DNA from: Candidatus Woesebacteria bacterium
GTDB lineage: Bacteria > Patescibacteriota > Microgenomatia > UBA1400 > UBA12108
Assembly (NCBI GenBank): GCA_018060845.1
Contig: JAGOVG010000003.1
Location: forward strand, 21,759-85,758
DNA length: 64,000 nucleotides
Direction of reading: 5' to 3'
Shown here: positions 4,250-41,023 of the stretch, one piece after another
Position numbering within the stretch: the first letter of the stretch is position 1
Layout of the letters: every line of letters begins with the position of its first letter
Program-made: the position numbers and the translations under genes
The notes under the pieces: generated by a model
The model's database searches: none
Told to the model about the DNA's origin: nothing
What the model saw: only the letters and a program-made list of their open reading frames with translations

Positions 4250-5236
4250 ATGAACATATTAACTATCGCCAAGCAAGCCTTCTCCCTCATCCTCTACCTC
4301 ATCTTGGCATTTATCCTTATCCACTTTTTAGCAGTCTTTGGAGTCTTTTTAGCGCTCGCGATCCCCCTTCTCCACCTCGCTTTTTACCCCAATATCACTT
4401 GTTTTAGCTGCCACATTAGCAAACGTCCTCATTCATTTAAACACTCACTCCTCGATGCCACACTCATCCTGCTTCTAACCCTCCTCTCAATTCCTATTAT
4501 TTATGGCGAGACTAGATTGATTAGCTATATTTTAAGCAAAAGAACGACTCCTACGATTGCAACTATTGCCGAGTTTAGTATCCCCGCTCGTTCACAGTAT
4601 CCAGTCGGCACTATTTTCCCGCTCCCCCTCGAGCTCAGGCGGATTCCCTCTGCCATCAACGTTGCCCAGGCCGACCTCGCATTTGACCCCAACCTCCTCG
4701 AAGTCGTCGACATCACAACTGATGGGACCTTTGCCGAGTTTTTTGTTCAAAAAGAATTTGATAATCAAAAAGGCTACCTTAGGTTAAGCGGCGGCATCCC
4801 CAATCCTGGGTATAACCGAGCCGACGGCCTCATTGGCACCGCCTATTTCCGCGCCAAGTCAGCCGGTGCCACAACCCTTAGATACTTAGAGAGCTCGCTC
4901 GTCCTCGCTAACGACGGCCGTGGCACCAACCTCCTCTCCGACTACCCGACCATCAACCTCATCATCACTCCGGGAACAGGTATTGGCGATGCTACATCTT
5001 CTGCCCTCACCATCAAGAACATGGTTCAGGGCGACAGCGACAAAACCGTGCTTAGCTTTACCGAATATGGCGGCGATCTCCCCAAACCGCTCAACAACGT
5101 CAATGGCACAAGCACTACTATGCCTATTCCCACCAAGCCACAGTCACTGCCCGCCGAATCCCCGCTTCTTGCTCATTTGCTCTCATTTAACCAGCAAGTA
5201 CTCAGTATCTACCGCTACCTACTCTCCAATTTATAG
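4250..5236 (+). CDS. Membrane-anchored protein with cohesin-like domain
   Basis: Three N-terminal TM helices. Then a domain resembling type I cohesin, GTIFPLPLELRRIPSAINVAQADLAFDPNLLEVVDI...GLIGTAYFRAKSAGATTL. Compare the cohesin pattern G.P.VYFRGVPSKGIANCDFVFRYDPNVLEII...GVFAKIRATVKS. It lies immediately downstream of the dockerin-bearing gene. Confidence 0.45.
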   Translation: MNILTIAKQAFSLILYLILAFILIHFLAVFGVFLALAIPLLHLAFYPNITCFSCHISKRPHSFKHSLLDATLILLLTLLSIPIIYGETRLISYILSKRTTPTIATIAEFSIPARSQYPVGTIFPLPLELRRIPSAINVAQADLAFDPNLLEVVDITTDGTFAEFFVQKEFDNQKGYLRLSGGIPNPGYNRADGLIGTAYFRAKSAGATTLRYLESSLVLANDGRGTNLLSDYPTINLIITPGTGIGDATSSALTIKNMVQGDSDKTVLSFTEYGGDLPKPLNNVNGTSTTMPIPTKPQSLPAESPLLAHLLSFNQQVLSIYRYLLSNL

Positions 5237-25243: not shown

Positions 25244-28200
25244 ATGAAAAACACTGTCCAATTACCCTCTACTCACACAGCTCTCTTAACCGCCTTCAGG
25301 ACCTACTTGGCTAGTCTCGGCTTAAGCAGTATTAGCCGCAAGCTCTACTCTGCAGATATAGCTCGATTACTCGCCTCAAGTCTCTTTAGTGATCTCAATG
25401 TCGCTACCCTGACCAACCCCAAGAACTATGCATCCTACCTCTCCCAGCCCGAGCTAACTAGCTCTAGCACCCTACTCCGCCGCACACTCGCATCACTTCG
25501 CCAATTTGGCACCTTCCTCAATCAGAGTTTTGACCTCCCAAGCCCCATCACCAACCTCTCTCTAGCCTCCAACACCCTCTCAAACACCATTAGCAACAGT
25601 TCGAGCAAGTATATCAAAGCATGCATGGAGTATCTCAAAGACAATCATCTAACAGATTCGAGTATTAGGTCCTATAAATCAGACATCACCCAGTACCTCA
25701 CCTACCTAGAGTCTCACCACCCTAGCACTCAGATAGGGAGTCTGCTAACTGATAAAAATCTACAAAATTACACGGATCTACTCACTCATTTGGATACCCA
25801 ATCCCCTGCTACCATAGAGCGCAAAATCAAAACTATCAGACGATTTTTGAACTGGTACAGCAGTACCAAGTTGCAGGTAGTAGTATCCGATAACACAAAA
25901 ATCCCCGCATCCAGTTCACATATCTCCCCTCTGTCCTCTTCCGTCCAGGTCAATGGTGTTAACTCCGCACAGGCAGAGCTCTACTCAGATCAACCTCAAA
26001 CTCAACTACCAGATCACAAGTACAATAATGTGAAAACTAGCAATTACCGCAAACTACGTCTACCCACTCTAAGAATGATCCTAAGCGGCGTAATCCTCTT
26101 AGTCTTAGTCTCCACACTCTCAATATTCTCTTATCGACAGTTTGGCCGTGACGCTAGTCTAACTGCCGCCTTCCCCTCTACTCCAGTAACCCCCAATAGG
26201 CAGTTGAGTTTTCAGGGTCGCTTAGAGAATGCGAGCGGCACCCCAATCACTGCCGCGACCAACTTTGTCTTTAAGCTCCACGATGCCAGTAGCGGTGGCT
26301 CAGAACTATATAGTAGTGGTACCTGTAGTATCACCCCCGACACCGATGGCGTCTTCTCAACACAAATCGGCGGGACCTGTGGCGCCGGGATCGCGAGCTC
26401 TGTCTTTACCGAGAACGCAGATGTCTGGCTCGAAGTCACAGTCGGTGCCGAGACTCTAACCCCTCGCCAGCAGATTGCAACCGTCGCCTACGCCCTTAAC
26501 TCTGAGACCATCCAGGGCTTCCCGATCAGCGCCACAGTTAGTGCGATCAGAAACACAGTTGTCCCCATGAACCAGTGGGGCGAGATCATCGTTGGTGAAC
26601 AGTCCCCTCGTCTAACCGGAGTCTCAGGTACTTTTCAAATCTCGGCCCCCTCCCTCTCCTTAGTTACTGCAACTGGCACCAACGGCAACATCACATTAGC
26701 CCCCGACGGCACTGGTCAGGTTAATGTCAATGGCAACACCACTACCACCAACTTCTTTAATGTCAGTAACGCTCAGCTTACAACCGGATCCTTGATTACA
26801 GGTACTGCCGCCAACAACAATACAGGGTTCAACTTACTTGATCTATTATCAGGTGCCTCACCTACCAGCAAATTCTCGGTATCTGATTCAGGAGATACCA
26901 CAATTGCAGGCACACTCTCATTACCCAACTCAAATAATATGACTGGTGTCGCCAATGGCGTTCAATTTAATGAGGGTATTTTTGTCGGAGGTGGCACAAC
27001 TTACTATTTTGACGTTGGGGGTGAGCTAAATGCAGCAGGTGGGGCCTTCTCTAATGGCTTAAGCATCATTAACGATTCTGCTCTATCTGCTTTTGGCCAA
27101 GTAAACTTAGGTGATGGAGGTGAGACTATTCATCTAAACGGAACTAGCATTACACTCACTGGCTTTGACTGTACCGGCAACACCAACGGTGGCGCCCTGA
27201 CCACCAATGGTTCTGGGGTTCTACAGTGTAGTGATGACGACGGAGGTGGTGGTGGCAGCGGTGGTCTCTGGCAAGACACTACACTAGGCGCCATCTCCCC
27301 AAACAACTCTACCTGGGACGTCTTGGTAGGTGGCACAGCTACTAGTAGTGCCAAAATCGGTTTGATCAATATAAATAGCGGCACCCCTACCATCAATCTA
27401 GCTAACCAAGCCAGTAATCTAGCAGTAATTGACAATACCAGTAACGCCCTACGTATCCTCGAAGGAGCCAACAACTATCTCGCACTCACCACAACTAACG
27501 CGAGTGAAAACTTGTCATTTGGCAATACAACCACCAATCCTACATTCTCATTCCTAGGCACAGGTCTCACTACTCTTAGTGGTGGATTGACGGTTAACGG
27601 CATTACAACTATCGGCAACAACTCAGCGACTGTCGCTATCAATAGTAGCGACTGGGATATCACGACAGTCGGTAATATGTCTGGAATTGGAACCATTAGT
27701 AGCGATGGTGACTGGACCAACAGTCAGGCAACGCCATCTATATTTTTGACTGATTCTACAGCTAGTTCAGACGACTATAGCGTCAATGTCGACGCTAACG
27801 TATTTAATATAACCAATGCAACAGACTCTAGAATAGAGCTAGATTTCGCAGGTAACGGTAGTATCAACTTTGGCGACAACACTGCCACCAAGACTATCGA
27901 CATCGGTGGTGTCACAAGCTCAGCCATCGACACTATTAATATAGGTACCAACGCAACTGCCGCAGATATTATCTCTATCGGCAACAACCATGCATCAACT
28001 ACTCTTGCTCTCACAGGCGGTACAGCCTGGAGCATCACAACAGCAGGCAATCTAACTACCAACAATACAACAGTTAACGGTAATACAATCCTCGGCAACG
28101 CCATTACCGACACAATCGACTTCCAGGGTCGGGTACTACAAGATGCAGACCTCATCCCTATCACTACTACTGGGACCAATGACTTGGGTAGTTCTGCCCT

Positions 28201-31200
28201 CGCCTGGGACAACCTCTACACTAACGCTGCCTACTTTGCAGGCGGCACCAGCTTCTATGTCGATGCCTCGGGTAACGCTAGATTTAACGATATTATCGCT
28301 GCCGACACCGCTAACCCAGGTATCACCGTCGGCGATGGATCAACTGGCTTCCTCAAAGTTGGGTCACTGACAGTAGGAGACAATAATGCAAGTGTCGTGA
28401 CCTTTGATACTAACAGCGACGCAACTCCCGAATTTCAGCTCTACAACACCGGTTCCGCCACTGCCTCGGGCGACATTACAATGGGGGGACAGTTGCAGGT
28501 CGGTAGATTTGAAAACACTCCAACAGCCATCGGTGCCGGCACCATGATCTTTAATACGACTACCAACAGTTTCCAATGCTACAACGGTACCGCCTGGACT
28601 AGCTGTGGTGGGACGCTCTTTAGTAACTCTAACGCAAGTGTGGCCGATGGCAGCTATATTACAGTCACTCACAACTTGGCCAGTAACGACCTCCTCTCCA
28701 ATGCCTGGATCAACGCACAAGGGGTCTGGAAGAGTCTCGATGCCAGCTATAAACCCGCGATCGCTTGGGAGGGCAAGGATACTCAAAAAGGGATCTATCA
28801 CAACGCTCTAAACAGCTATATCCCCTCCTCAGAGACAGGCACCGGAACCAACACTCTCCATGAGGGGATGATCTTTGACACATTTGAGGACACAACCAAG
28901 ACCGATAGTGCCAACACCACGGTCAGCACCAACCAACAAATAGGCGATGATGGTAGTAGTAACTTTGTCACCCTCGACCAGCGCATCCAAGGCGGGCGGG
29001 TCGGGCTAGTTGGTGGTCAAACTTTGAGTACTGGTGAAACAGACAATGATGGCCAAGCATACTTAGGTAGCAACACAGTTAATGATATGTATTATTACGA
29101 TAGAGCAAAAGATAGCGTACCAGAAGTTTTAGTAGAACTTGGCATTGATCCAAACTGGTATAACGGAGTTACTCTTTCAGTTGCAACAGGTAGTGCAAGT
29201 TATTCTCAATCAGGAACACTTGCAGACAAGAATCCAAACCTAACAACTACATATAACGGTAGTTTAATCAAAGCAACAGGAACTGATTCAACACCGAGAA
29301 CAATCTTTATAACAATCAAATCCCCTACTACATTTGATTGGACAAACTATGAGGGTGACTCTGCAACAGCAGTCACAATTACTCCAGGAACTGCACAGGC
29401 ACTAGGTAGTACAGGCGTATCAGCTACTTTTACAGCTACAAACTACAACGTCGGTGATGTATTTAAAATTGCCTCTTGGTATATAGAAGCAGAATCTGCA
29501 ACAAGAGGAGCAAAACAACAGTTTCCAGAAAGAAGTTATGTTGTAGCTTCAGGTACAGCAGGAGCAGGTTTTATTGATGTGATCGACGCCGACACGCAAA
29601 AATTATGGATTAAGTTCACAGAAGGTACTGGGTACTACCTTCGCTCTACAGCAAATCGCGTCCCCCACACTGTTGACATGCTAAACGGCAAATTATACTT
29701 TGGTCAAAAGGATTCTAACAATGGGATCCTAGAAAGGATCAACTTTGATACAGATTCACTACACTTATGGACCCCGTCTGCTAAATACACCTACGACCAA
29801 GGAATATCACAAAGGAATACAGCCAGTAATATATTAACAATCAACACAACTGAAACAACTGTTGCAAACGACGTCAACGATGTTTCTGCAGCCGTCATCC
29901 CAAATCAACCGTCACAACAGATGACTCTGACAGGCTGGCGAGTTCACCCCGGCAATGGAACTGCAACCCTAACTTCTGGTGTTGACTTCCAGTATCCGTT
30001 TACCGACACACCTCAAATTCAAGTAAGTATTGTTGGTAGAACCACCTCAACTACAACGCCAAAAAGTCTAAAGGACTGTTCGACTAATGTCGATTCTGCA
30101 ACCATCTCAGCATACAACAACAATCCAGCTAACTTTTATGCAAGATTTTCCAACACAACCTTCTCTGCTTCTTACAATTATTGCTTTGTTTGGAGTGCGA
30201 CAGGCACAGTTGCACCAAAACAAATCGTGGCGGTTGCGACAGGCACAACTGGGGCAGATGGAGGAACGACTATTATCAACGAAACTGACGGTAAAAAGGC
30301 CGACATTTTAATTGGCTCACAAAACGCTTCAGTATTATGGCAAAACAAGGTTGCATTGGCTCAAGATGGCACGTTGTATGTCGTATTAAACAACCAATCG
30401 ACAGCAACAACCCTTAATGTCTATGCTGGAGCGTCGGGCATACCTGAAGTAATTTCTCAAGAACCAACCTGGGCAGCTTATCGCAATGGATTCTATTACC
30501 TTGATTTGCAAACACAAGGATGGTCAGCAACTGGTCCGGTCATTAAAGGAGTAGGTACAAACTCAGATGAAGTTAAGTCTCTATCTGTAACTAGTGGAAC
30601 CAGTTCAATATCTCCCGGAGCAAATACTATTTATGTTGGCACCTCTACAGGTGTAACCGTACTTAATGAAGCCAACATAGAGCCAGATTACAATAGTGAC
30701 GAACCAAGCAACGGCTCAGTCAAATACTACACCAAAGACTACGTTTCTGAAGAAATGATTGGCGATGTAAGAGGAATGTGGGGTATGTATGATACTGATA
30801 CAGACATTGACACGGCTGAAACAACAGATGATGTCTCGATTAAAAATCTTAACCTAACAGCTAACAACGCAAACAGTACTGGGTTTACCTCAACCTCAGG
30901 AGTTCGTGGTGAAGGTATAACTTTTGATGGTACCGACGACTACTTTAGTCGCGCAGATGACGCATCACTTAGTTTTTCTAACAACACCATGTCGGCAAGT
31001 TATTGGGTAAAACGTAATGGAAATCCATCTTCTGCTGAATATATCATGCTCAAAGGAATTACCACCTGGGAATATGCTTCTGCTATTACTACTGCAGGTA
31101 AAATTATCAGCTGGTTATTTACTTCAGCTGGAGCTACTGTCGCAACTGTTACTTCTAATTTATCTGTCACTGACAATGAGTGGCATCATGTAGCTATAAC

Positions 31201-34200
31201 CTCAAATGGTTCTACTATTGCTGTGTATATCGACGGGCAATTAGACAATAACTCCACATCATTCACCAGTGCAATGACAAATACTGCATCAAGTTTTTAT
31301 GTCGGAGACAGATCAGACATAGCTAATTCAGAGTTCCAAGGTTCATTAGATGAATTAATGATAACTGGCACTGCTTTATCGAGTAGTCAAGTTAGGAATA
31401 TCTATCAAGTTGGCTATCGTGCATTACAAAGTCATACAAGTTCTGGATTAGGTACAGGTGGTGCAGATACTAACCAACAGCTCGGATACATTTCGACAGG
31501 TACTAGCTCTGTAGGTGTAGTTCAACCGGATTACAACAACCAATATATGTACGTAGGTACAAACTCAACAACACTTGGAGCTCTATCAAAAATACAATTG
31601 AACAGTGATACAAATATTAAAACCTACAACTCCAGTGCAAACGTCCCTACTGGCGGTGTTCTTACTTTAGATGAAGACATAACTTCCCTAGCAGTTGGAG
31701 AAACACTGTATGCAGTTGGTTCTGCAGCAAGTGGTGTTAAAACAATGGGACTGGATAACAATGCAACTGCAACTAGTGGTAACTTTGTCAGTAAAACCTA
31801 TGCGCTACCAAAAAATATTGGCTCTGCAGTTCTTTGGGTCTCACCAATTATGGACAGCAACGACGGAAGTAACACAATCACAGTACAGGCAAGTAACGAT
31901 GGTGGTAGTAACTATGCAACTTGTACTCTAGTAAACACAAATACAAATTATGATGCACCAGAACGTGAGTATGCCTGTACATTTACAGCTGCAGACAACG
32001 ACCTAAAAGTTAGATTTCAAATGGCAAGAGGAAACACAAAAACAAATACCTATGTTGTCCAATATGGAATTAGCTGGTTAGGTGAAACTGGTTTTAGAGT
32101 CGAACAAGCTGATAACAACAATGTAAGGTTATATAACTTCTCAGGTGAAGCTCAAAACTTAAAGTTAAACATAACTGGTGCATCAACTTCTGCCCTAGCA
32201 AACCCATGGACAGATGGTGGTAGCTACATTTACGCAACAGGATATGAAACATTAAGAATATATGACGGTGCAGGAACAAATTACTTAGGACTCTCTCATG
32301 ATGGAACATATGCAACATTGGGCTACAATGGTACAGACTTTATCAACCTCACATCAACAGGTGATTTATTACCAGAGACAAATGATACTCAGGCTCTTGG
32401 TTCTGACTCATTTAGATGGGAAGATGTCTTCCTCGGTCCAGGTAGCGTTCACGTTGGAACCTCAACGACTGACGAAGGTGTTATATCTTATGATACATCC
32501 GGTAACATCTTAAATATTGGTACGGATAGTACTAGTAATGGAGATATTGCATTCTTCACCGACGACCTCTATCTAGATAAATCGTCTGGATTTATCGGTC
32601 TCGGCGATATAACTCCAGATTACTTACTTGACGTCGCAGGCACTGCAGGGTTTGACTCAACGCTCACACTTACCGGATCAGCAGCAAATGTCGCACTCGG
32701 ATCAAACTACCTATCAGGCGATGGTGGTGATGAAGGAGTCTATGTTGACTCCAGTGGTAACGTCGGCATTGGGAATGCCTCACCTGACAGACCATTACAA
32801 GTTACGAGATCAACAACAGGCATACCTATGAGATTACAAAACAATTTTACAGATTCATCTGAGTACTGGGTAGTCGGTCCGTCAGACAGTGATAACTTCG
32901 CGATATTTAATGATGCAACAACTGGTATGTATATTGCGTATGGTGCCACCTCTTGGACCGCCAACTCAGACGAACGACTAAAGACTAACATCGAGGCGCT
33001 CACTAGTGTAGAAGGACTGGCATCTCTTCTAGAGTTGACTCCGGTCAACTACAACTGGAAAGACGTTAACACCAATCAGAGCAAGCAAACAGGTTTCTTA
33101 GCTCAAGAAGTCCAGCGTCTCTTCCCAGGACTTGTAAGTTTAGGAGAAACCACAACAATTACGCTTGCTGATGGCTCGACCCAGACGATCGAGGCACCCC
33201 TTGGCGTCAACTACACTGGCTTTATCCCATACATCATCAAAGGGATCCAGGAACAACAAGCACAGATTAGTCAGATGTTCCAAAATCTCATTACACCTCA
33301 AGTTAATACCGCCATGATATCCCCTCTCGCTCCAGGGCAGTCCATCGAGATCACAGCCCCCGTCGTCATCTCACCCACAACTCCCAACCTAGACACGCCA
33401 ACTCTCATCGTTGATGGTGAGATTGAGGCCACGACCATCTCTGCTCGTGTAGCTCAGTTAGAAACCATCCGTGCCGAGACAATTACCGCCAGAGACATAG
33501 TAGCCGACACTATCACTGCCAACTCAATTGTCGGTCTAGATGCCAAAATAGCTAGTCTCTCAGCCGGGATCAGCGAATCAGATTTCGACTCGATCTCCGA
33601 GCGGATCAGATCTAGATTAGCGAGCCTGACTGGTGGCGAGGCAAATGCCCAGGACGTCCCCGCTCCTCCCTCTATTCCTGAGACAGTAATCGAATACTCA
33701 GAGCTATCCACTGCCTCAGCTACGCTAGCTACTGCCGACATAGACTTTGTCACAGTCAATCAGTATCTCGCTGTCATCGGCTCAGCCACCATCACTAGTT
33801 TGGATATAACTAGTGACCTCTATACTAATAGAATAGGTAGCAAGGATAACCTCCTCGCCATCCAGCCACTCGGTGGGATAGTCAACATAGCAGACAGCAC
33901 ATTTGTTGTAGATAGTAGCGGCCAGGTCATGGTCAACGGCGACTTAACAGTCTCCGGACGCATCCTAGCCGAATCAGGCAACCTAGGTTCGCTTGAACTA
34001 GGTTCGCCATTGGACGCTTCAGCTAGTAGCGCGCTAGGCAACCTCCTCTCTATCTACAACGAGCAGGGACAAGCGGTCGCAACTATAGACGCTTCAGGCA
34101 GTGCCAATCTAGCGGGTCTCACCACCCAGCTAGTAACCATCGCATCAGGTGGAACCTCCGCCACTCAGTCAGGACTGATCTCAAGTCAGACGAGTAGCAA

Positions 34201-34453
34201 CTCAACCGCAGGTGTCAGCACCCTCCTCTCACCCGACACTGAGCTAACGATCGATAGTCCCTATGTCACTGCCAACTCCCTAGTCTATTTGACACCTACC
34301 ACAAATACTGACAACAAAGTTCTTTTTGTCAAAGCTAAGGTTAGTTGTCCCGAAGAATCTGAACTATGCACACCATCATTCACAGTCGGGATAGATGCAC
34401 CAGCGTCGACTGACATCGGCTTTAACTGGTGGATAATCGAGCTCAAACAATGA
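25244..34453 (+). CDS. Giant (3069 aa) single-pass membrane surface protein. Two N-terminal phage-integrase SAM-like domains, TM, Gly/Thr/Asn-rich beta-repeat ectodomain with LamG-like domain and S74-type intramolecular chaperone domain.
   Basis: Uninterrupted 9.2-kb ORF. Two N-terminal repeats resemble the XerD N-terminal domain (LTAFRTYLASLGLSSISRKLYSADI and YLKDNHLTDSSIRSYKSDITQYLTYL). TM at about aa 272-298. LamG/ConA-like segment at about 30.88-31.41 kb (WHHVAITSNGSTIAVYIDGQ...LDELMI). SDERLKTNI...VNYNWKD at 32.96-33.25 kb matches the PF13884 tail-fibre chaperone motif. Confidence 0.75.
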   Translation: MKNTVQLPSTHTALLTAFRTYLASLGLSSISRKLYSADIARLLASSLFSDLNVATLTNPKNYASYLSQPELTSSSTLLRRTLASLRQFGTFLNQSFDLPSPITNLSLASNTLSNTISNSSSKYIKACMEYLKDNHLTDSSIRSYKSDITQYLTYLESHHPSTQIGSLLTDKNLQNYTDLLTHLDTQSPATIERKIKTIRRFLNWYSSTKLQVVVSDNTKIPASSSHISPLSSSVQVNGVNSAQAELYSDQPQTQLPDHKYNNVKTSNYRKLRLPTLRMILSGVILLVLVSTLSIFSYRQFGRDASLTAAFPSTPVTPNRQLSFQGRLENASGTPITAATNFVFKLHDASSGGSELYSSGTCSITPDTDGVFSTQIGGTCGAGIASSVFTENADVWLEVTVGAETLTPRQQIATVAYALNSETIQGFPISATVSAIRNTVVPMNQWGEIIVGEQSPRLTGVSGTFQISAPSLSLVTATGTNGNITLAPDGTGQVNVNGNTTTTNFFNVSNAQLTTGSLITGTAANNNTGFNLLDLLSGASPTSKFSVSDSGDTTIAGTLSLPNSNNMTGVANGVQFNEGIFVGGGTTYYFDVGGELNAAGGAFSNGLSIINDSALSAFGQVNLGDGGETIHLNGTSITLTGFDCTGNTNGGALTTNGSGVLQCSDDDGGGGGSGGLWQDTTLGAISPNNSTWDVLVGGTATSSAKIGLININSGTPTINLANQASNLAVIDNTSNALRILEGANNYLALTTTNASENLSFGNTTTNPTFSFLGTGLTTLSGGLTVNGITTIGNNSATVAINSSDWDITTVGNMSGIGTISSDGDWTNSQATPSIFLTDSTASSDDYSVNVDANVFNITNATDSRIELDFAGNGSINFGDNTATKTIDIGGVTSSAIDTINIGTNATAADIISIGNNHASTTLALTGGTAWSITTAGNLTTNNTTVNGNTILGNAITDTIDFQGRVLQDADLIPITTTGTNDLGSSALAWDNLYTNAAYFAGGTSFYVDASGNARFNDIIAADTANPGITVGDGSTGFLKVGSLTVGDNNASVVTFDTNSDATPEFQLYNTGSATASGDITMGGQLQVGRFENTPTAIGAGTMIFNTTTNSFQCYNGTAWTSCGGTLFSNSNASVADGSYITVTHNLASNDLLSNAWINAQGVWKSLDASYKPAIAWEGKDTQKGIYHNALNSYIPSSETGTGTNTLHEGMIFDTFEDTTKTDSANTTVSTNQQIGDDGSSNFVTLDQRIQGGRVGLVGGQTLSTGETDNDGQAYLGSNTVNDMYYYDRAKDSVPEVLVELGIDPNWYNGVTLSVATGSASYSQSGTLADKNPNLTTTYNGSLIKATGTDSTPRTIFITIKSPTTFDWTNYEGDSATAVTITPGTAQALGSTGVSATFTATNYNVGDVFKIASWYIEAESATRGAKQQFPERSYVVASGTAGAGFIDVIDADTQKLWIKFTEGTGYYLRSTANRVPHTVDMLNGKLYFGQKDSNNGILERINFDTDSLHLWTPSAKYTYDQGISQRNTASNILTINTTETTVANDVNDVSAAVIPNQPSQQMTLTGWRVHPGNGTATLTSGVDFQYPFTDTPQIQVSIVGRTTSTTTPKSLKDCSTNVDSATISAYNNNPANFYARFSNTTFSASYNYCFVWSATGTVAPKQIVAVATGTTGADGGTTIINETDGKKADILIGSQNASVLWQNKVALAQDGTLYVVLNNQSTATTLNVYAGASGIPEVISQEPTWAAYRNGFYYLDLQTQGWSATGPVIKGVGTNSDEVKSLSVTSGTSSISPGANTIYVGTSTGVTVLNEANIEPDYNSDEPSNGSVKYYTKDYVSEEMIGDVRGMWGMYDTDTDIDTAETTDDVSIKNLNLTANNANSTGFTSTSGVRGEGITFDGTDDYFSRADDASLSFSNNTMSASYWVKRNGNPSSAEYIMLKGITTWEYASAITTAGKIISWLFTSAGATVATVTSNLSVTDNEWHHVAITSNGSTIAVYIDGQLDNNSTSFTSAMTNTASSFYVGDRSDIANSEFQGSLDELMITGTALSSSQVRNIYQVGYRALQSHTSSGLGTGGADTNQQLGYISTGTSSVGVVQPDYNNQYMYVGTNSTTLGALSKIQLNSDTNIKTYNSSANVPTGGVLTLDEDITSLAVGETLYAVGSAASGVKTMGLDNNATATSGNFVSKTYALPKNIGSAVLWVSPIMDSNDGSNTITVQASNDGGSNYATCTLVNTNTNYDAPEREYACTFTAADNDLKVRFQMARGNTKTNTYVVQYGISWLGETGFRVEQADNNNVRLYNFSGEAQNLKLNITGASTSALANPWTDGGSYIYATGYETLRIYDGAGTNYLGLSHDGTYATLGYNGTDFINLTSTGDLLPETNDTQALGSDSFRWEDVFLGPGSVHVGTSTTDEGVISYDTSGNILNIGTDSTSNGDIAFFTDDLYLDKSSGFIGLGDITPDYLLDVAGTAGFDSTLTLTGSAANVALGSNYLSGDGGDEGVYVDSSGNVGIGNASPDRPLQVTRSTTGIPMRLQNNFTDSSEYWVVGPSDSDNFAIFNDATTGMYIAYGATSWTANSDERLKTNIEALTSVEGLASLLELTPVNYNWKDVNTNQSKQTGFLAQEVQRLFPGLVSLGETTTITLADGSTQTIEAPLGVNYTGFIPYIIKGIQEQQAQISQMFQNLITPQVNTAMISPLAPGQSIEITAPVVISPTTPNLDTPTLIVDGEIEATTISARVAQLETIRAETITARDIVADTITANSIVGLDAKIASLSAGISESDFDSISERIRSRLASLTGGEANAQDVPAPPSIPETVIEYSELSTASATLATADIDFVTVNQYLAVIGSATITSLDITSDLYTNRIGSKDNLLAIQPLGGIVNIADSTFVVDSSGQVMVNGDLTVSGRILAESGNLGSLELGSPLDASASSALGNLLSIYNEQGQAVATIDASGSANLAGLTTQLVTIASGGTSATQSGLISSQTSSNSTAGVSTLLSPDTELTIDSPYVTANSLVYLTPTTNTDNKVLFVKAKVSCPEESELCTPSFTVGIDAPASTDIGFNWWIIELKQ

Positions 34454-37852: not shown

Positions 37853-39247
37853 ATGAAGAAAAAGATCACTCGTACCAAAGCTAAAGTTTCCAAGAGGATC
37901 AAGTCCAAATCAACCTCCCTTTCTCCACTCCCACTCATCTTAGTTTTAGCCTTAATCATTATCTCAGGCTACTATGTCTACCGCTCACTCCTATCCAGTT
38001 CTAGTACCCCGATCCAGATCGCCGAGATCAAAAATGCCACCGGGTCGGTTAATCTAAACTTAAATAGCACTAAGACTTCCCTCGCCCCTAACCAGGATGC
38101 AACAGTTACCTTAACCTACGACTCCCCAACCGACAAATTAACAGTCATTAGTGGTGAGATCAGCTACGACCCCGCAGTCTTGACTGTTAGCAACTTTGTC
38201 AAAGGCGATGGTTTCCCCACCGAGTTTGCAGCAGCCACAGCCGCAAATGGCAAAATAACCTTTACCTACGGCGTCGCGGTCGCCGCCGGATCAGGTTTAA
38301 CTGGTCAAGGCAATATCTTGACATTCAAAGTCAGATCCAAGGCAGTCGGCTCCTCCACCCTCGCAATCACTGATGCTACCCAAGTACTCGTAACTGGCAA
38401 CAGCAATAATGCACTTCGTGAGATTACCAATACTACAGTCGCAGTTGCAGACCCAGCAGTAAGCCCCTCCACTGCCGCGAGCGCTGCAGTCTCTCCATCA
38501 CCCAGTACCACTGTAACAGTTAGTCCGAGCCCAGCGGTATCTCCATCTGCAGCTGCATCCATTATTCCCTCAACTCCTGCCTCTGCCTCACCTATTGCTA
38601 GCGTGCCAGTAGTCCAAAAACCGGCCGCTCCCACTAACCTCGTATACAACTGCTACAGTGACGGCAAAAGGATCACCTTGCGCTGGAATGCAGTTGCCAA
38701 TGTTGATAGCTACGAAGTAGTCTTTGACCAAAAAGATGGCGACAACGACCAGACAAAGTCAGCCACTCGCGCCGAGATCGACCTAGATATCAAAAATAAC
38801 ACGAATTACAAATGGAGTGTTGTTAGCGTTAAGGATGGTGTTAAGAGCGATGCCAGCAGTGTAAATGATATTAAGTGTAGTGGTGACGTCGCACAAGCTG
38901 CTACCCCTACTCCTACTCCCACGCCAACAACTACTCCCACACCCACCCCAGCTCCAACCAAAAAACCTATTACAGAGCAGATTGCAGGTATCTTCAAACC
39001 CAAGTCTCCCTCACCTACTCCTACCCCCAAGCCAACCTTAGCTCCGACAGACTTTACTACGCCCAACCAGAATAGTAATGTCATTGCCACACCCACTCCA
39101 ACACCTGGCAGCCTCGGCGACATCTTTACTTCCCCCTCAGCTACTCCAGTCGTCGCAGCCAACACGAACAATACCAGCTTCTTCTCCAAAATCCTCTTAG
39201 GATGGCAAGCACTCTTCATTAGATTCATCGAAACGCTGACAAATTAA
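37853..39247 (+). CDS. Cohesin-like domain, FN3-like domain and Pro/Thr-rich linker surface protein
   Basis: N-terminal TM. Cohesin-like segment VTLTYDSPTDKLTVISGEISYDPAVLTVSNFVKGDGF...KITFTYGVAVAAGSGLTGQGNILTFKVRSKAVGSSTLAI. FN3-like NLVYNCYSDGKRITLRWNAVANVDSYEVVF. Long PTPTPT linker. Confidence 0.5.
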   Translation: MKKKITRTKAKVSKRIKSKSTSLSPLPLILVLALIIISGYYVYRSLLSSSSTPIQIAEIKNATGSVNLNLNSTKTSLAPNQDATVTLTYDSPTDKLTVISGEISYDPAVLTVSNFVKGDGFPTEFAAATAANGKITFTYGVAVAAGSGLTGQGNILTFKVRSKAVGSSTLAITDATQVLVTGNSNNALREITNTTVAVADPAVSPSTAASAAVSPSPSTTVTVSPSPAVSPSAAASIIPSTPASASPIASVPVVQKPAAPTNLVYNCYSDGKRITLRWNAVANVDSYEVVFDQKDGDNDQTKSATRAEIDLDIKNNTNYKWSVVSVKDGVKSDASSVNDIKCSGDVAQAATPTPTPTPTTTPTPTPAPTKKPITEQIAGIFKPKSPSPTPTPKPTLAPTDFTTPNQNSNVIATPTPTPGSLGDIFTSPSATPVVAANTNNTSFFSKILLGWQALFIRFIETLTN

Positions 39248-39358
39248 TCTCGAGTTGTAGTAAAATATCATCTACCAGGGACCTTATAGCTTGCACATCA
39301 AGTGCAGTATGCACATGAGAAATGCCTCCAGACACGAAGTAGTCTGGGAGACCAGTTG

Positions 39359-39390
39359 GTAGAGCGTCCCGATGGACATCGGGGAGGTAA
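39359..39390 (+). repeat. 32-nt direct repeat copy 1 (GTAGAGCGTCCCGATGGACATCGGGGAGGTAA) inside a degenerate tRNA-like sequence
   Basis: Identical to 39764-39795. Contains a 6-bp stem / 4-nt loop hairpin (CCCGAT ggac ATCGGG). Preceded by a tRNA D-arm-like CCAGTTGGTAGAGCG. Confidence 0.6.
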
Positions 39391-39421
39391 CCCTAGTCTT
39401 AACAATCAAATAGATATGCTT

Positions 39422-39497
39422 GGGCCCTTAGCTCAGTTGGTAGAGCGCTTCTATGGCATAGAAGAGGTAAGCGGTTCGATCCCGCTAGGGTCCACCA
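39422..39497 (+). tRNA. tRNA-Ala (anticodon GGC), CCA encoded
   Basis: Cloverleaf: acceptor GGGCCCT/AGGGTCC with the G3:U70 Ala identity pair. D-arm GCTC AGTTGGTA GAGC. Anticodon arm CTTCT ATGGCAT AGAAG. T-arm AGCGG TTCGATC CCGCT. Discriminator A plus CCA. 76 nt. Confidence 0.85.
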
Positions 39498-39761
39498 ATG
39501 TGGACTGTTTATATTCTGCAAAGCCAGATAAACTATTCCTACTACGTCGGCTCAACTTCTGATGTCAACCGCCGAATTAAAGAACATAATGCAGGCCACA
39601 CACCCTCCACAAAAAATCTCATACCACTCACCATTCGTTTTTCTCAAGAATACCCAACGCTAAAATATGCTAGAAAAGTCGAGAGTTGGTTAAAGTCCAC
39701 TCATAGCAAGGTCGTCATCGAACAAATAATACTAGATGGCAAGATAAACAAAAAGTTCTAA
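39498..39761 (+). CDS. GIY-YIG nuclease family protein (YhbQ/UPF0213-like)
   Basis: MWTVYILQSQINYSYYVGSTSDVNRRIKEHN is a classic GIY-YIG motif with the conserved Arg and Glu. ATG immediately follows the tRNA CCA. AGGG of the tRNA acceptor 3' strand sits 8 nt upstream as a possible SD. Confidence 0.7.
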   Translation: MWTVYILQSQINYSYYVGSTSDVNRRIKEHNAGHTPSTKNLIPLTIRFSQEYPTLKYARKVESWLKSTHSKVVIEQIILDGKINKKF

Positions 39762-39763
39762 CT

Positions 39764-39795
39764 GTAGAGCGTCCCGATGGACATCGGGGAGGTAA
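39764..39795 (+). repeat. 32-nt direct repeat copy 2, followed by a degenerate tRNA 3'-half copy (to about 39822)
   Basis: Identical 32-mer. The downstream GAGGTAAGCGGTAGGGTCCCACTAGGGTCCACAC parallels the tRNA-Ala 3' part AGGTAAGCGGTTCGATCCCGCTAGGGTCCACCA. Confidence 0.6.
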
Positions 39796-39822
39796 GCGGT
39801 AGGGTCCCACTAGGGTCCACAC

Positions 39823-40977
39823 TTAACTAAGTTGGTTAACTAGATCCACTACCTCACCCATCCCCGCACTAACCCAGACTATATTCTTACCTGTTTCTTC
39901 ATCAAATTTTGAGCTCACCATACCCCTATCAGCCTCGTCTACTAACTCCATTTTATTTACAACCACGATTTCGCTCTTCTCACTTAACCCTTTTCCACCC
40001 TGTGCTGAGCTAGCCGAAGCATATTTTTCTAGCTCTTTCCGTACGACTCTATAATCCCTGACCAGTTGCTCCGCGATACTTTCATTTTGCCCTTTTTCAC
40101 CCATTTCTATACTGGGCGCTATCACATGAATCAAGGTCTTTGTTCGCTCCAAATGTCTCAGGAACCATGGTCCTATCCCCTTCCCCTCCCACGCTTCCTC
40201 GATCACTCCAGGCACATCAACTAAGATCAGTTTTTTATCATGCACTGTAACTACACCCAGATTAGGTTCTAGTGTCGTAAATGGGTATCCAGCTATCTTG
40301 GGGTTAGCATTGGTCAGTGCTTTGAGTATTGAGCTTTTACCGACATTTGGTAGCCCCACAATGCCTATGTCTGCCACCACCTTAAGCTCTAGTAGTAGAT
40401 ATTTTTCTTCACCGGGTGTGCCGGGCTCAAACTCTTGCGGAGTCTGGTTAGTAGAACTACGAAAGTGCCAGTTCCCCTTGCCACCCCTACCACCCCATGC
40501 TCCCACAAATTCTTTGCCGTGAACATCCATATCAACGAGCATTCGTCTCTCTTTCATGAGCTCATCAAAGGTTTCTCGGTTTCTTAGGTTTTTCTCAAAA
40601 TAATCTTGAGTTACTTCATAGATTGCAGTACCCACTGGGACCGCGATCACAATATCACCTCTGTCTTCACCATGCATTTTCTTTGGCATCCCACCCTCTC
40701 CATCCATCGCCAAGTATTTCTTTTTAAAGTTAAACTCTACTAAGTTCTCGACATTTTCGTCAGCGCGGATTATAACGTCGCCACCCTTACCTCCGTCTCC
40801 CCCATCTGGTCCACCTTTAGGCGCAAATTTCTCATGCCGAAACGATAGCTTCCCACTCCCCCCGTCCCCTGCCTTGATATAAATCCGTGCTAGATCTTTC
40901 ACAGTGTCCCTCCGTAGTTCCCCCAGAACGAAGGGGGATCTCTTCATTATACCAGCAAATAGTTCAAAATAGATCAT
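39823..40977 (-). CDS. obg: GTPase Obg/CgtA
   Basis: Obg fold with Gly-rich LSFRHEKFAPKGGPDGGDGGKGGDVII. G-domain GIVGLPNVGKSS and FTTLEPNLGVV. The true start is possibly the internal Met around 40947. Confidence 0.85.
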   Translation of the reverse strand: MIYFELFAGIMKRSPFVLGELRRDTVKDLARIYIKAGDGGSGKLSFRHEKFAPKGGPDGGDGGKGGDVIIRADENVENLVEFNFKKKYLAMDGEGGMPKKMHGEDRGDIVIAVPVGTAIYEVTQDYFEKNLRNRETFDELMKERRMLVDMDVHGKEFVGAWGGRGGKGNWHFRSSTNQTPQEFEPGTPGEEKYLLLELKVVADIGIVGLPNVGKSSILKALTNANPKIAGYPFTTLEPNLGVVTVHDKKLILVDVPGVIEEAWEGKGIGPWFLRHLERTKTLIHVIAPSIEMGEKGQNESIAEQLVRDYRVVRKELEKYASASSAQGGKGLSEKSEIVVVNKMELVDEADRGMVSSKFDEETGKNIVWVSAGMGEVVDLVNQLS

Positions 40978-41023
40978 ATTTTCACTCTGCTATACTAATA
41001 GCAATATCACACTGGAGATATAT

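Follow-up and report, generated by a model that had tools for sequence, protein, structure and literature searches.

How a gene for a minimal nuclease comes to lie directly against an intact tRNA gene, between what appear to be two broken copies of that same tRNA, is the question raised by a locus of a Candidatus Woesebacteria bacterium (assembly GCA_018060845.1, contig JAGOVG010000003.1, positions 21,759 to 85,758), analyzed here as a single stretch of 64,000 nucleotides that is referred to as the window. An open reading frame (ORF) for a GIY-YIG nuclease of the Slx1/UPF0213 (YhbQ-like) type begins at the base following the CCA of tRNA-Ala(GGC) and stops 2 nt 5′ of the second of two identical 32-nt repeats, the first of which precedes the tRNA (Table 1). 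Comparison with related genomes and with homologues of the nuclease elsewhere makes it probable that a small, selfish cassette of the homing type, which carries the nuclease and in which tRNA function is kept by way of partial duplication, has reshaped what was a tRNA-Ala(GGC) gene at positions 39278-39820.

A sequence-only reading of this DNA had described the identical 32-mer pair, the intact tRNA, the nuclease ORF abutting the CCA and a hairpin in the anticodon-arm position of both degenerate copies, and each of these features is confirmed. The 32-mer, GTAGAGCGTCCCGATGGACATCGGGGAGGTAA, is 100% identical between its two sites, which are its only matches in the 64 kb with 3 mismatches allowed (0 expected from 100 shuffles). 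Within it, an 18-nt hairpin denoted H (TCCCGATGGACATCGGGG), with stem CCCGAT/ATCGGG and loop GGAC, substitutes for the 17-nt anticodon arm in both pseudo-copies. Gapped alignment of the intact tRNA with the left flank equates copy 1 with tRNA positions 1-49, beginning at 39278; the extent of about 39343-39400 given to it earlier misses a 5′ acceptor remnant and a 61-nt insertion. Copy 2 (39764-39820) aligns with tRNA positions 19-74, and by these alignments both pseudo-copies on the flanks derive from duplication and disruption of the tRNA-Ala gene. Of the three tRNA-related sequences, ARAGORN and Rfam (E<=10) call the intact tRNA but neither of the degenerate copies.

Alleles of the tRNA-Ala site in related Woesebacteria

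Orthologous loci were retrieved through the neighbouring Obg gene (L-numbers denote the loci retrieved for comparison and W the window allele), and related Woesebacteria display three states of the site, namely naive, occupied and relic. The naive alleles, found in L005 and L129 (Obg about 89% identical to that of W) and in L037/L038 (Obg 79%), consist of the box GTAGTAAAATA, about 10 nt and a plain tRNA-Ala(GGC) that directly abuts the Obg stop codon. Occupied alleles are those of W, L001 and L034; L001 has the same layout as W, with copy 1, tRNA, GIY-YIG gene (72% amino acid identity) and copy 2 in that order, and the contig of L034 (Obg 95%) ends within a copy 2 bearing an identical H. The relic, L131 (Obg 79%), has the promoter box followed by a decayed copy 1 (GGACCTTG...CAGAGTGTAGAGCG) without the 61-nt insert and without H. 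Its spacer, like that of L001, has AATAGCTAAACTAG at the end and leads into a normal tRNA that adjoins Obg, the nuclease gene and copy 2 both being absent. The acceptor and D-stem remnant at the start of copy 1, GGGACCTTATAGCTT in W, has its counterpart in GGACCTGTAGCTT of L001, and GGACCTTG is what L131 keeps of it.

The boundaries of the insertion can be read from these alleles. The box stands ahead of copy 1 in both W and L001, and ahead of the plain tRNA in naive L005, L129 and L037, and on this comparison it is the left unaltered flank; on the right, the 3′ end of copy 2 meets the Obg stop codon at the very place where the plain tRNA of naive alleles does. By synonymous divergence, naive L005 (dS to W of 0.87 for Band7 and 1.36 for Obg) is nearer to W than is occupied L001 (1.37 and more than 2.5), and the distribution of the cassette is therefore patchy, with gain or loss. 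This gain/loss polymorphism at the tRNA-Ala site is real, and presence or absence at one site among close relatives with unaltered flanks is the pattern looked for in homing endonucleases.

The footprint of a small cassette, suspected from the sequence, is thus borne out, with the cassette present in W, L001 and L034 and absent from L005, L129 and L037/L038. Its target had been described as tRNA-like, but it is a genuine tRNA-Ala gene, the inner tRNA of W being identical through GGTCCAC to the single tRNA of naive L005, L129 and L037. Empty sites had been anticipated in relatives and were found, but they hold this genuine tRNA and not a single 32-mer, and H is absent from them. H is therefore not duplicated target DNA, nor is the 32-mer a simple att or target duplication. 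The att-site alternative offered earlier is not supported in that form, as the central hairpin is missing in naive alleles and recurs in related cassettes at other tRNAs. The other reservation, that the 32-mer is a generic repeat, also falls away, the sequence occurring twice in the window and not being found in two public collections.

Further peculiarities accompany these alleles. A BrnT toxin/CopG-type antitoxin pair lies between Band_7 and Obg, overlapping the Obg start, in naive or relic relatives (L035 734-1280, L129 1958-2504, L130 349-895 and L131 1958-2504; window counterpart 40978-41023) and is not at that place in W, L034, L001 or L037, a second presence/absence polymorphism on the opposite side of Obg. 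Contigs of five independent assemblies (L034, L036, L039, L040 and L130) end inside the tRNA or copy 2, near GGTAGAGCG; the repeat looks to have made the assembly graph branch there, unless alleles coexisting in the samples did so. The Obg gene of L001 (1166-2418) is split into ORFs of 257 and 174 amino acids, by a frameshift or an assembly error in this metagenome-assembled genome.

The nuclease and its relatives at tRNA genes

When metagenome contigs were scanned with four aligned homologues as the query, 80 loci with 82 GIY-YIG ORFs were returned. A same-strand tRNA gene lies within 70 nt of 59 of these 82 ORFs (44 of the 62 clusters at 90% identity), where the tRNA density of the far flanks, 0.084 per kb, would give about 0.4. 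The tRNA-adjacent ORFs cover 21 anticodons and loci of 30-63% G+C. Zero or near-zero spacing between tRNA and ORF, taken at first to be uncommon, is the rule in this protein family.

As a rule, part of the adjacent tRNA, 13-41 nt or longer, is repeated in direct orientation on the two sides of the ORF, with maxima of 9-12 in shuffled sequence. Where the tRNA lies upstream, as in W, a 13-41-nt copy of its 3′ part follows the ORF (L110/L113, 34 nt exact; L120, L051/L070, L116, L096, L084 and L002); where it lies downstream, a copy of its 5′ part, from position 1 to about 22-35, precedes the ORF, and most family members duplicate this 5′ part rather than the 3′ part. The full W layout of copy 1 with hairpin, tRNA, ORF and copy 2 is found at tRNA-Thr in L051 and L070, from another organism; these are the only loci in which a promoter duplication is clear, and L070 has tandem copy 2s.

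The partial copies bear stable GC-rich hairpins, either inserted into the D-loop or T-loop or replacing the anticodon arm, and an anticodon-arm hairpin of the same kind, at the same tRNA position, is present in about 14 other loci. The W-type hairpin, CCGATG..CATCGG, also occurs at tRNA-Ala and tRNA-Ile loci, and related forms at tRNA-Ala (TCCCGGTGAAACCGGGA) and tRNA-Thr; all have the local D-stem 3′ strand before them and AGGT and the T arm after. Stem pairing is kept between clades by compensatory changes, and in several relatives the stop codon of the ORF lies inside the hairpin loop. Judged by its recurrence in related cassettes at other tRNAs, H is a module specific to the cassette. Nuclease clade, hairpin type and tRNA group co-vary, so that the hairpin co-evolves with the nuclease. 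The clade that bears the palindrome CCTGCCTGCCGGCAGGCAGG is found at tRNA-Arg genes for four different isoacceptors, from which it follows that cassettes have moved from one tRNA gene to another, and further clades are found at Glu/Gln and at Gly-CCC. The cassette class is widespread at bacterial tRNA genes and apparently undescribed.

The nuclease is the only GIY-YIG ORF of the window, and its PF01541 match spans residues 1-71 of 87; the protein is too short to hold a DNA-binding domain apart from the catalytic one. A profile search against PDB sequences returned UPF0213 proteins (1zg2, 1.4e-9; 1ywl), followed by SLX1 chains, and the residues Y5, Y15/16, R25/26, H30 and E62 are conserved in the alignment. 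Both Tyr motifs, the catalytic Arg and Glu and a minimal stand-alone domain of about 90 amino acids thus place it in the Slx1/UPF0213 branch, a minimal Slx1-like GIY-YIG branch already described (PMC1564403). NCBIfam, PHROGs and PADLOC gave no match above threshold for the protein, and the NCBIfam model grpIintron_endo covers residues 3-39 only, with a score below its cutoff. A role as a defence system was discarded, the PADLOC search yielding no meaningful match, as was a phage origin, viral contigs giving only weak, partial N-terminal matches. The protein family amounts to about 2,490 clusters at 50% identity (E<=1e-3). Many of its database entries are 110-120 amino acids long and begin to match near residue 30-35; in P0004 (L002 5001-5360) the extension runs through the post-tRNA spacer and the real start is at 5106, and gene callers appear to over-extend the starts of these ORFs.

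Several other loci of the scan deserve mention. ARAGORN reports "tRNA-SeC(tca)" or "tRNA-Stop(tta)" beside GIY-YIG ORFs in L083 (1754-1829), L104 (1204-1276) and L105 (1726-1798); the calls seem to reflect tRNA duplicates whose anticodon arm has changed, and such pseudo-copies could be mis-annotated as suppressors. L042 holds tandem GIY-YIG cassettes of different clades (1492-1749 and 2042-2287) beside tRNA-Ile(GAT) and tRNA-Ala(TGC), a pair typical of rRNA operon spacers. Among near-identical contigs, the gap from tRNA-Arg(GCG) to the ORF is 43 nt in L084/L087 and 219 nt in L085/L086, the extra segment of the longer form holding a hairpin-bearing piece of pseudo-tRNA; the difference is a structural cassette polymorphism within one population.

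Parts of the locus and their conservation

Table 1. Features of the tRNA-Ala locus, in window coordinates
Feature	Position	Strand	Remarks
Promoter-like box GTAGTAAAATA	39257-39267	+	about 11 nt 5′ of the tRNA-like start
Copy 1, remnant of the 5′ strands of the tRNA-Ala acceptor stem and D-stem, GGGACCTTATAGCTT	39278-39292	+	
Insertion of about 61 nt at the D-loop position of copy 1	39293-39352	+	after tRNA position 12; dG -20 kcal/mol
Variable hairpin of the insertion	39293-39317		
Invariant block of the insertion	39318-39352		contains CCAGAC/GTCTGG hairpin
32-mer, copy 1	39359-39390	+	D-stem 3′ strand GTAGAGCG, hairpin H, variable-loop AGGTAA
Hairpin H TCCCGATGGACATCGGGG in copy 1	39367-39384	+	occupies the place of the anticodon arm
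Spacer, copy 1 to intact tRNA	39391-39421	+	
Intact tRNA-Ala(GGC)	39422-39497	+	G3:U70 and CCA; ARAGORN; Rfam tRNA, 61 bits
Hairpin GGTCCAC-CAAT-GTGGACT, then GTTTATATTC	39489-39506	+	terminator-like call
Minimal GIY-YIG nuclease ORF, 87 amino acids, Slx1/UPF0213 (YhbQ-like) type	39498-39761	+	PF01541, 8e-14
32-mer, copy 2	39764-39795	+	hairpin H at 39772-39789
Copy 2, 3′ part	39796-39820	+	T-stem with altered T-loop AGCGG TAGGGTC CCACT; acceptor AGGGTCC-AC
Obg GTPase gene	39823-40977	-	Pfam GTP1_OBG; right unaltered flank, used to retrieve orthologues

The box at the left end may be the promoter, although a promoter consensus scan did not flag it. The D-loop insertion of copy 1 has no second occurrence in the window or in the compared loci and is absent from the L131 relic. 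Between the spacer and the promoter or downstream flank, no significant homology was detected in W or L001; such homology would have marked a tandem-duplication junction, for which there is thus no support at the spacer. In the hairpin called at the junction of tRNA and ORF, the first three codons of the ORF are paired with the 3′ strand of the tRNA acceptor stem; L001 keeps this GTCCAC/GTGGAC pairing, which could couple expression of the ORF to folding or processing of the tRNA. Immediately 5′ of the locus, the gene at 37853-39247 encodes a cohesin-domain protein (Pfam Cohesin, 1.2e-7) with long Pro/Thr/Ser-rich tracts of low complexity, and further upstream the window carries a single ORF of 3,069 amino acids on the plus strand (25244-34453).

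Constraint was gauged between W and L001, for which neutral sequence is saturated (ORF pS 0.68, dS about 1.8) and the flanks and spacer are 42-45% identical (spacer 42%). Against this background, the GIY-YIG ORF has a dN/dS of 0.09, the 32-mer of copy 2 is identical at 32/32 positions, the D-arm, H and variable region of copy 1 at 37/38, and the block at 39318-39352 at 35/35, with about 45% identity in the sequence on either side of it, whereas the functional tRNA is only 87% identical. Conserved beyond the tRNA, the flanks and the spacer, the hairpin modules are the most constrained sequence of the locus, and they and the ORF are under strong purifying selection. The variable hairpin at 39293-39317 is replaced by another hairpin in L001 with the overall predicted fold kept, and fold z-scores are only about -1.8 to -2. 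A coding basis for the conservation of copy 1 was rejected for the two ORFs that overlap it, one on the minus strand (39284-39409) and one on the plus strand (39302-39562), because 100% nucleotide identity without synonymous change is not coding-like.

The host-like parts of the pseudo-copies share the lineage substitutions of the local inner tRNA, with CAGTTGG, GCGG and CTAGGGTCC in W, and CAGATGG, GGGG and CTCAGGTCC in L001. Such common lineage-specific substitutions indicate concerted evolution of the pseudo-copies with the inner tRNA by gene conversion.

Explanations of the locus and its relation to known systems

If the locus is a homing-type cassette, the nuclease would nick or cut in or beside its cognate tRNA gene, recognizing either sequence or DNA structure, and recombinational repair would copy the cassette into naive alleles and yield partial tandem duplications, as experiments have demonstrated for the phage enzyme SegB. 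Insertions destroying the sole tRNA copy would be lost and the survivors would therefore keep an intact tRNA beside the ORF, the broken duplicate persisting as flanking halves. The three-part layout of W probably arose through unequal recombination in a simpler unit of tRNA, ORF and partial copy, in which a tandem duplication would have been followed by deletion between GTAGAGCG repeats, and recombination between the tRNA and copy 2 would remove the ORF and leave a relic like L131. Transcription of the ORF probably starts, together with that of the tRNA, at the tRNA promoter, and processing of the tRNA would then release it, with the acceptor-strand AGGG, 9 nt upstream, as a candidate Shine-Dalgarno sequence; besides the GGTCCAC/GTGGAC hairpin, no notable internal promoter or terminator was found for it. 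The near-absolute conservation of the hairpins points to a sequence-specific role in cis, and they may be sites of the cassette for nuclease recognition or immunity, for recombination, or for stabilizing or processing the transcript.

Several observations weigh against this reading. Only three occupied alleles of the W cassette were recovered, further copies being reached through Obg orthologues only, and the pattern GTAGAGCG-N5-ATGGACAT-N5-AGGTA had 0 matches in collections of genome contigs and metagenome contigs. The inner tRNA equals the naive target, so that a model in which a disrupted site gives immunity does not account for self-protection, and cut-and-fill duplication of a target does not explain the repeats, the naive alleles being without the hairpin. 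As judged from its sequence, the protein is an 87-residue catalytic domain without an obvious DNA-binding module for a long target, such as the separate module of I-TevI and the Seg proteins. Strong purifying selection over deep divergence (dS of at least 1.4) is, moreover, unusual for a purely selfish homing gene and could mean a role beneficial to the host.

This selection also speaks for a resident, non-mobile Slx1-like host gene co-transcribed with tRNAs, for which the pseudo-halves and hairpins would be RNA-level signals left by old local tRNA duplications, serving as RNase P/Z-like processing sites, as 5′/3′ stabilizers or as translational control elements. Besides the very low dN/dS and the 97-100% conservation of the hairpin modules, an ORF without its own promoter, a start codon paired with the tRNA 3′ strand, a stop codon in the hairpin loop of many relatives and the like folding of copy-1 RNA in W and L001 would all fit, and a GIY-YIG/TrmH fusion (PMC1564403) hints at a link with RNA. 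A resident gene is nonetheless unlikely, given presence/absence and relic alleles among close relatives, a patchy distribution, and one clade at different isoacceptors, where the local repeats, up to 34 nt long, are in each case newly identical; the low magnitude of the fold z-scores also counts against it.

Less likely still is a two-component system in which the nuclease has a functional RNA or single-stranded DNA partner, used as a guide, scaffold or recognition structure, in the tRNA-like sequence with its substituted hairpin (from the outer 5′ strand through D arm, H and T arm to the 3′ strand). The conservation of H and of the 35-nt block, near-absolute and exceeding that of the real tRNA, the clade-specific co-variation of nuclease and hairpin and the compensatory changes that keep the hairpin paired would suit such a tRNA mimic, and the Slx1 relatives are structure-specific nucleases. 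In all three occupied alleles (W, L001 and L034), however, copy 2 has a degenerate T loop, and many relatives have a single partial copy only. The outer 5′ strand (39279-39285) can pair with the 3′ strand of copy 2 in W and L001, yet this acceptor pairing is mostly accounted for by descent from the tRNA, which also suffices to dismiss a single large outer tRNA-like gene with covarying 5′ and 3′ strands.

A miniature integrative element mobilized in trans, with the repeats as attL/attR of a tyrosine or serine integrase encoded elsewhere and the GIY-YIG gene as cargo, in the manner of cis-mobilizable derivatives of tRNA-targeting islands, is the most improbable of these alternatives: its sharp repeat boundaries, and the full tRNA (39422-39497) with a partial 3′ copy (39764-39820) as direct repeats, are the classical integrase signature (PMC9897764), but no integrase lies within the 0.5-kb unit or adjoining it, in most of the family the duplicated part of the tRNA is the 5′ one, the repeat's hairpin is missing at naive sites, and of all genes only the GIY-YIG ORF stays constant over dozens of hosts and tRNAs. 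Integrase-borne islands and prophages do resemble the cassette in targeting a tRNA, keeping it intact and having part of it directly repeated at their distal boundary (PMC9897764). In W, the GIY-YIG ORF is the only domain-bearing ORF between the repeats, its neighbours being the cohesin-domain protein and Obg, and the cassettes differ from such islands in a size of 0.3-0.5 kb instead of 9-23 kb or more, in the predominance of 5′-part duplication and in repeats that contain hairpins foreign to the target.

Close parallels to a homing-type cassette are offered by free-standing GIY-YIG homing endonucleases of tRNA gene clusters, among them SegB of phages T4 and T6. SegB cleaves within tRNA gene regions and favours the inheritance of a unit of tRNA and nuclease (PMC2330249; PMC13096335); by way of homologous recombination and microhomology, it causes a 718-bp tRNA+segB unit to be amplified in tandem (PMC13096335). 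In phages generally, SegB is found together with tRNA genes, without a tie to any one isotype (PMC2330249; PMC13096335). Both systems place a GIY-YIG gene beside tRNA genes. W has partial tandem copies, and L045 and L070 hold arrays of pseudo-copies, in the generation of which the nuclease may have had a part; the W protein is not a SegB orthologue. In contrast to SegB, genes of the W type reside in cellular chromosomes of Woesebacteria and many other bacteria, encode a Slx1/UPF0213-type protein of about 87 amino acids without a DNA-binding extension, abut a same-strand tRNA at 0-70 nt and are flanked by hairpin-modified partial tRNA copies, of which no report was found for SegB.

The UPF0213 (YhbQ-type) proteins 1zg2 and 1ywl share the minimal catalytic domain and size of the W protein and are its best profile matches; such Slx1-like prokaryotic proteins have been treated as uncharacterized, putative repair proteins (PMC1564403), and no tie of UPF0213-type proteins to tRNA genes or mobility was found in searchable papers. 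Group I introns are likewise selfish elements in tRNA genes of Patescibacteria, where tRNA function is preserved (PMC13011429), but here the functional tRNA is uninterrupted and its function is saved by duplication instead of splicing. A group I intron, a tmRNA-like domain or another known RNA was rejected for W, where Rfam (E<=10) over 39000-40100 returned the tRNA only; a sub-threshold tmRNA match on copy 2 of L110 reflects its tRNA-Ala-like 3′ part.

Minimal cellular GIY-YIG genes at tRNA genes with hairpin-modified pseudo-halves were not found described in the searchable, and incomplete, literature. The locus would then represent a new form of a known sort of element, the homing-type selfish nuclease cassette, with a modest chance that the mechanism itself is new. 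It is rather doubtful, if somewhat less so than a resident gene, that a new kind of mobile element is at hand, in which a minimal, structure-specific GIY-YIG nuclease and a clade-specific hairpin/tRNA-mimic module target tRNA genes, possibly through DNA or RNA structure, and the tRNA is regenerated on insertion by templated partial duplication, a mode of transposition or homing unlike those of integrases, classical homing endonucleases, introns or insertion sequences.

If the homing-type reading is true, the Slx1/UPF0213-like family of minimal GIY-YIG proteins, with its many clusters, gains a biological role, and a third way of occupying an essential RNA gene comes into view. Introns splice themselves out and integrases bring a replacement tRNA end; here, partial duplication would keep the tRNA while hairpin-marked pseudo-halves remain. 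It would also account for several annotation errors, namely pseudo-tRNAs taken for suppressor or selenocysteine tRNAs, ORF starts over-extended through tRNAs and contigs broken at tRNAs in metagenomes of the Candidate Phyla Radiation (CPR). The cassette may add to the duplication and turnover of tRNA genes in reduced genomes, and the co-varying triplets of nuclease, hairpin and tRNA are candidates for compact, possibly structure-guided nucleases.

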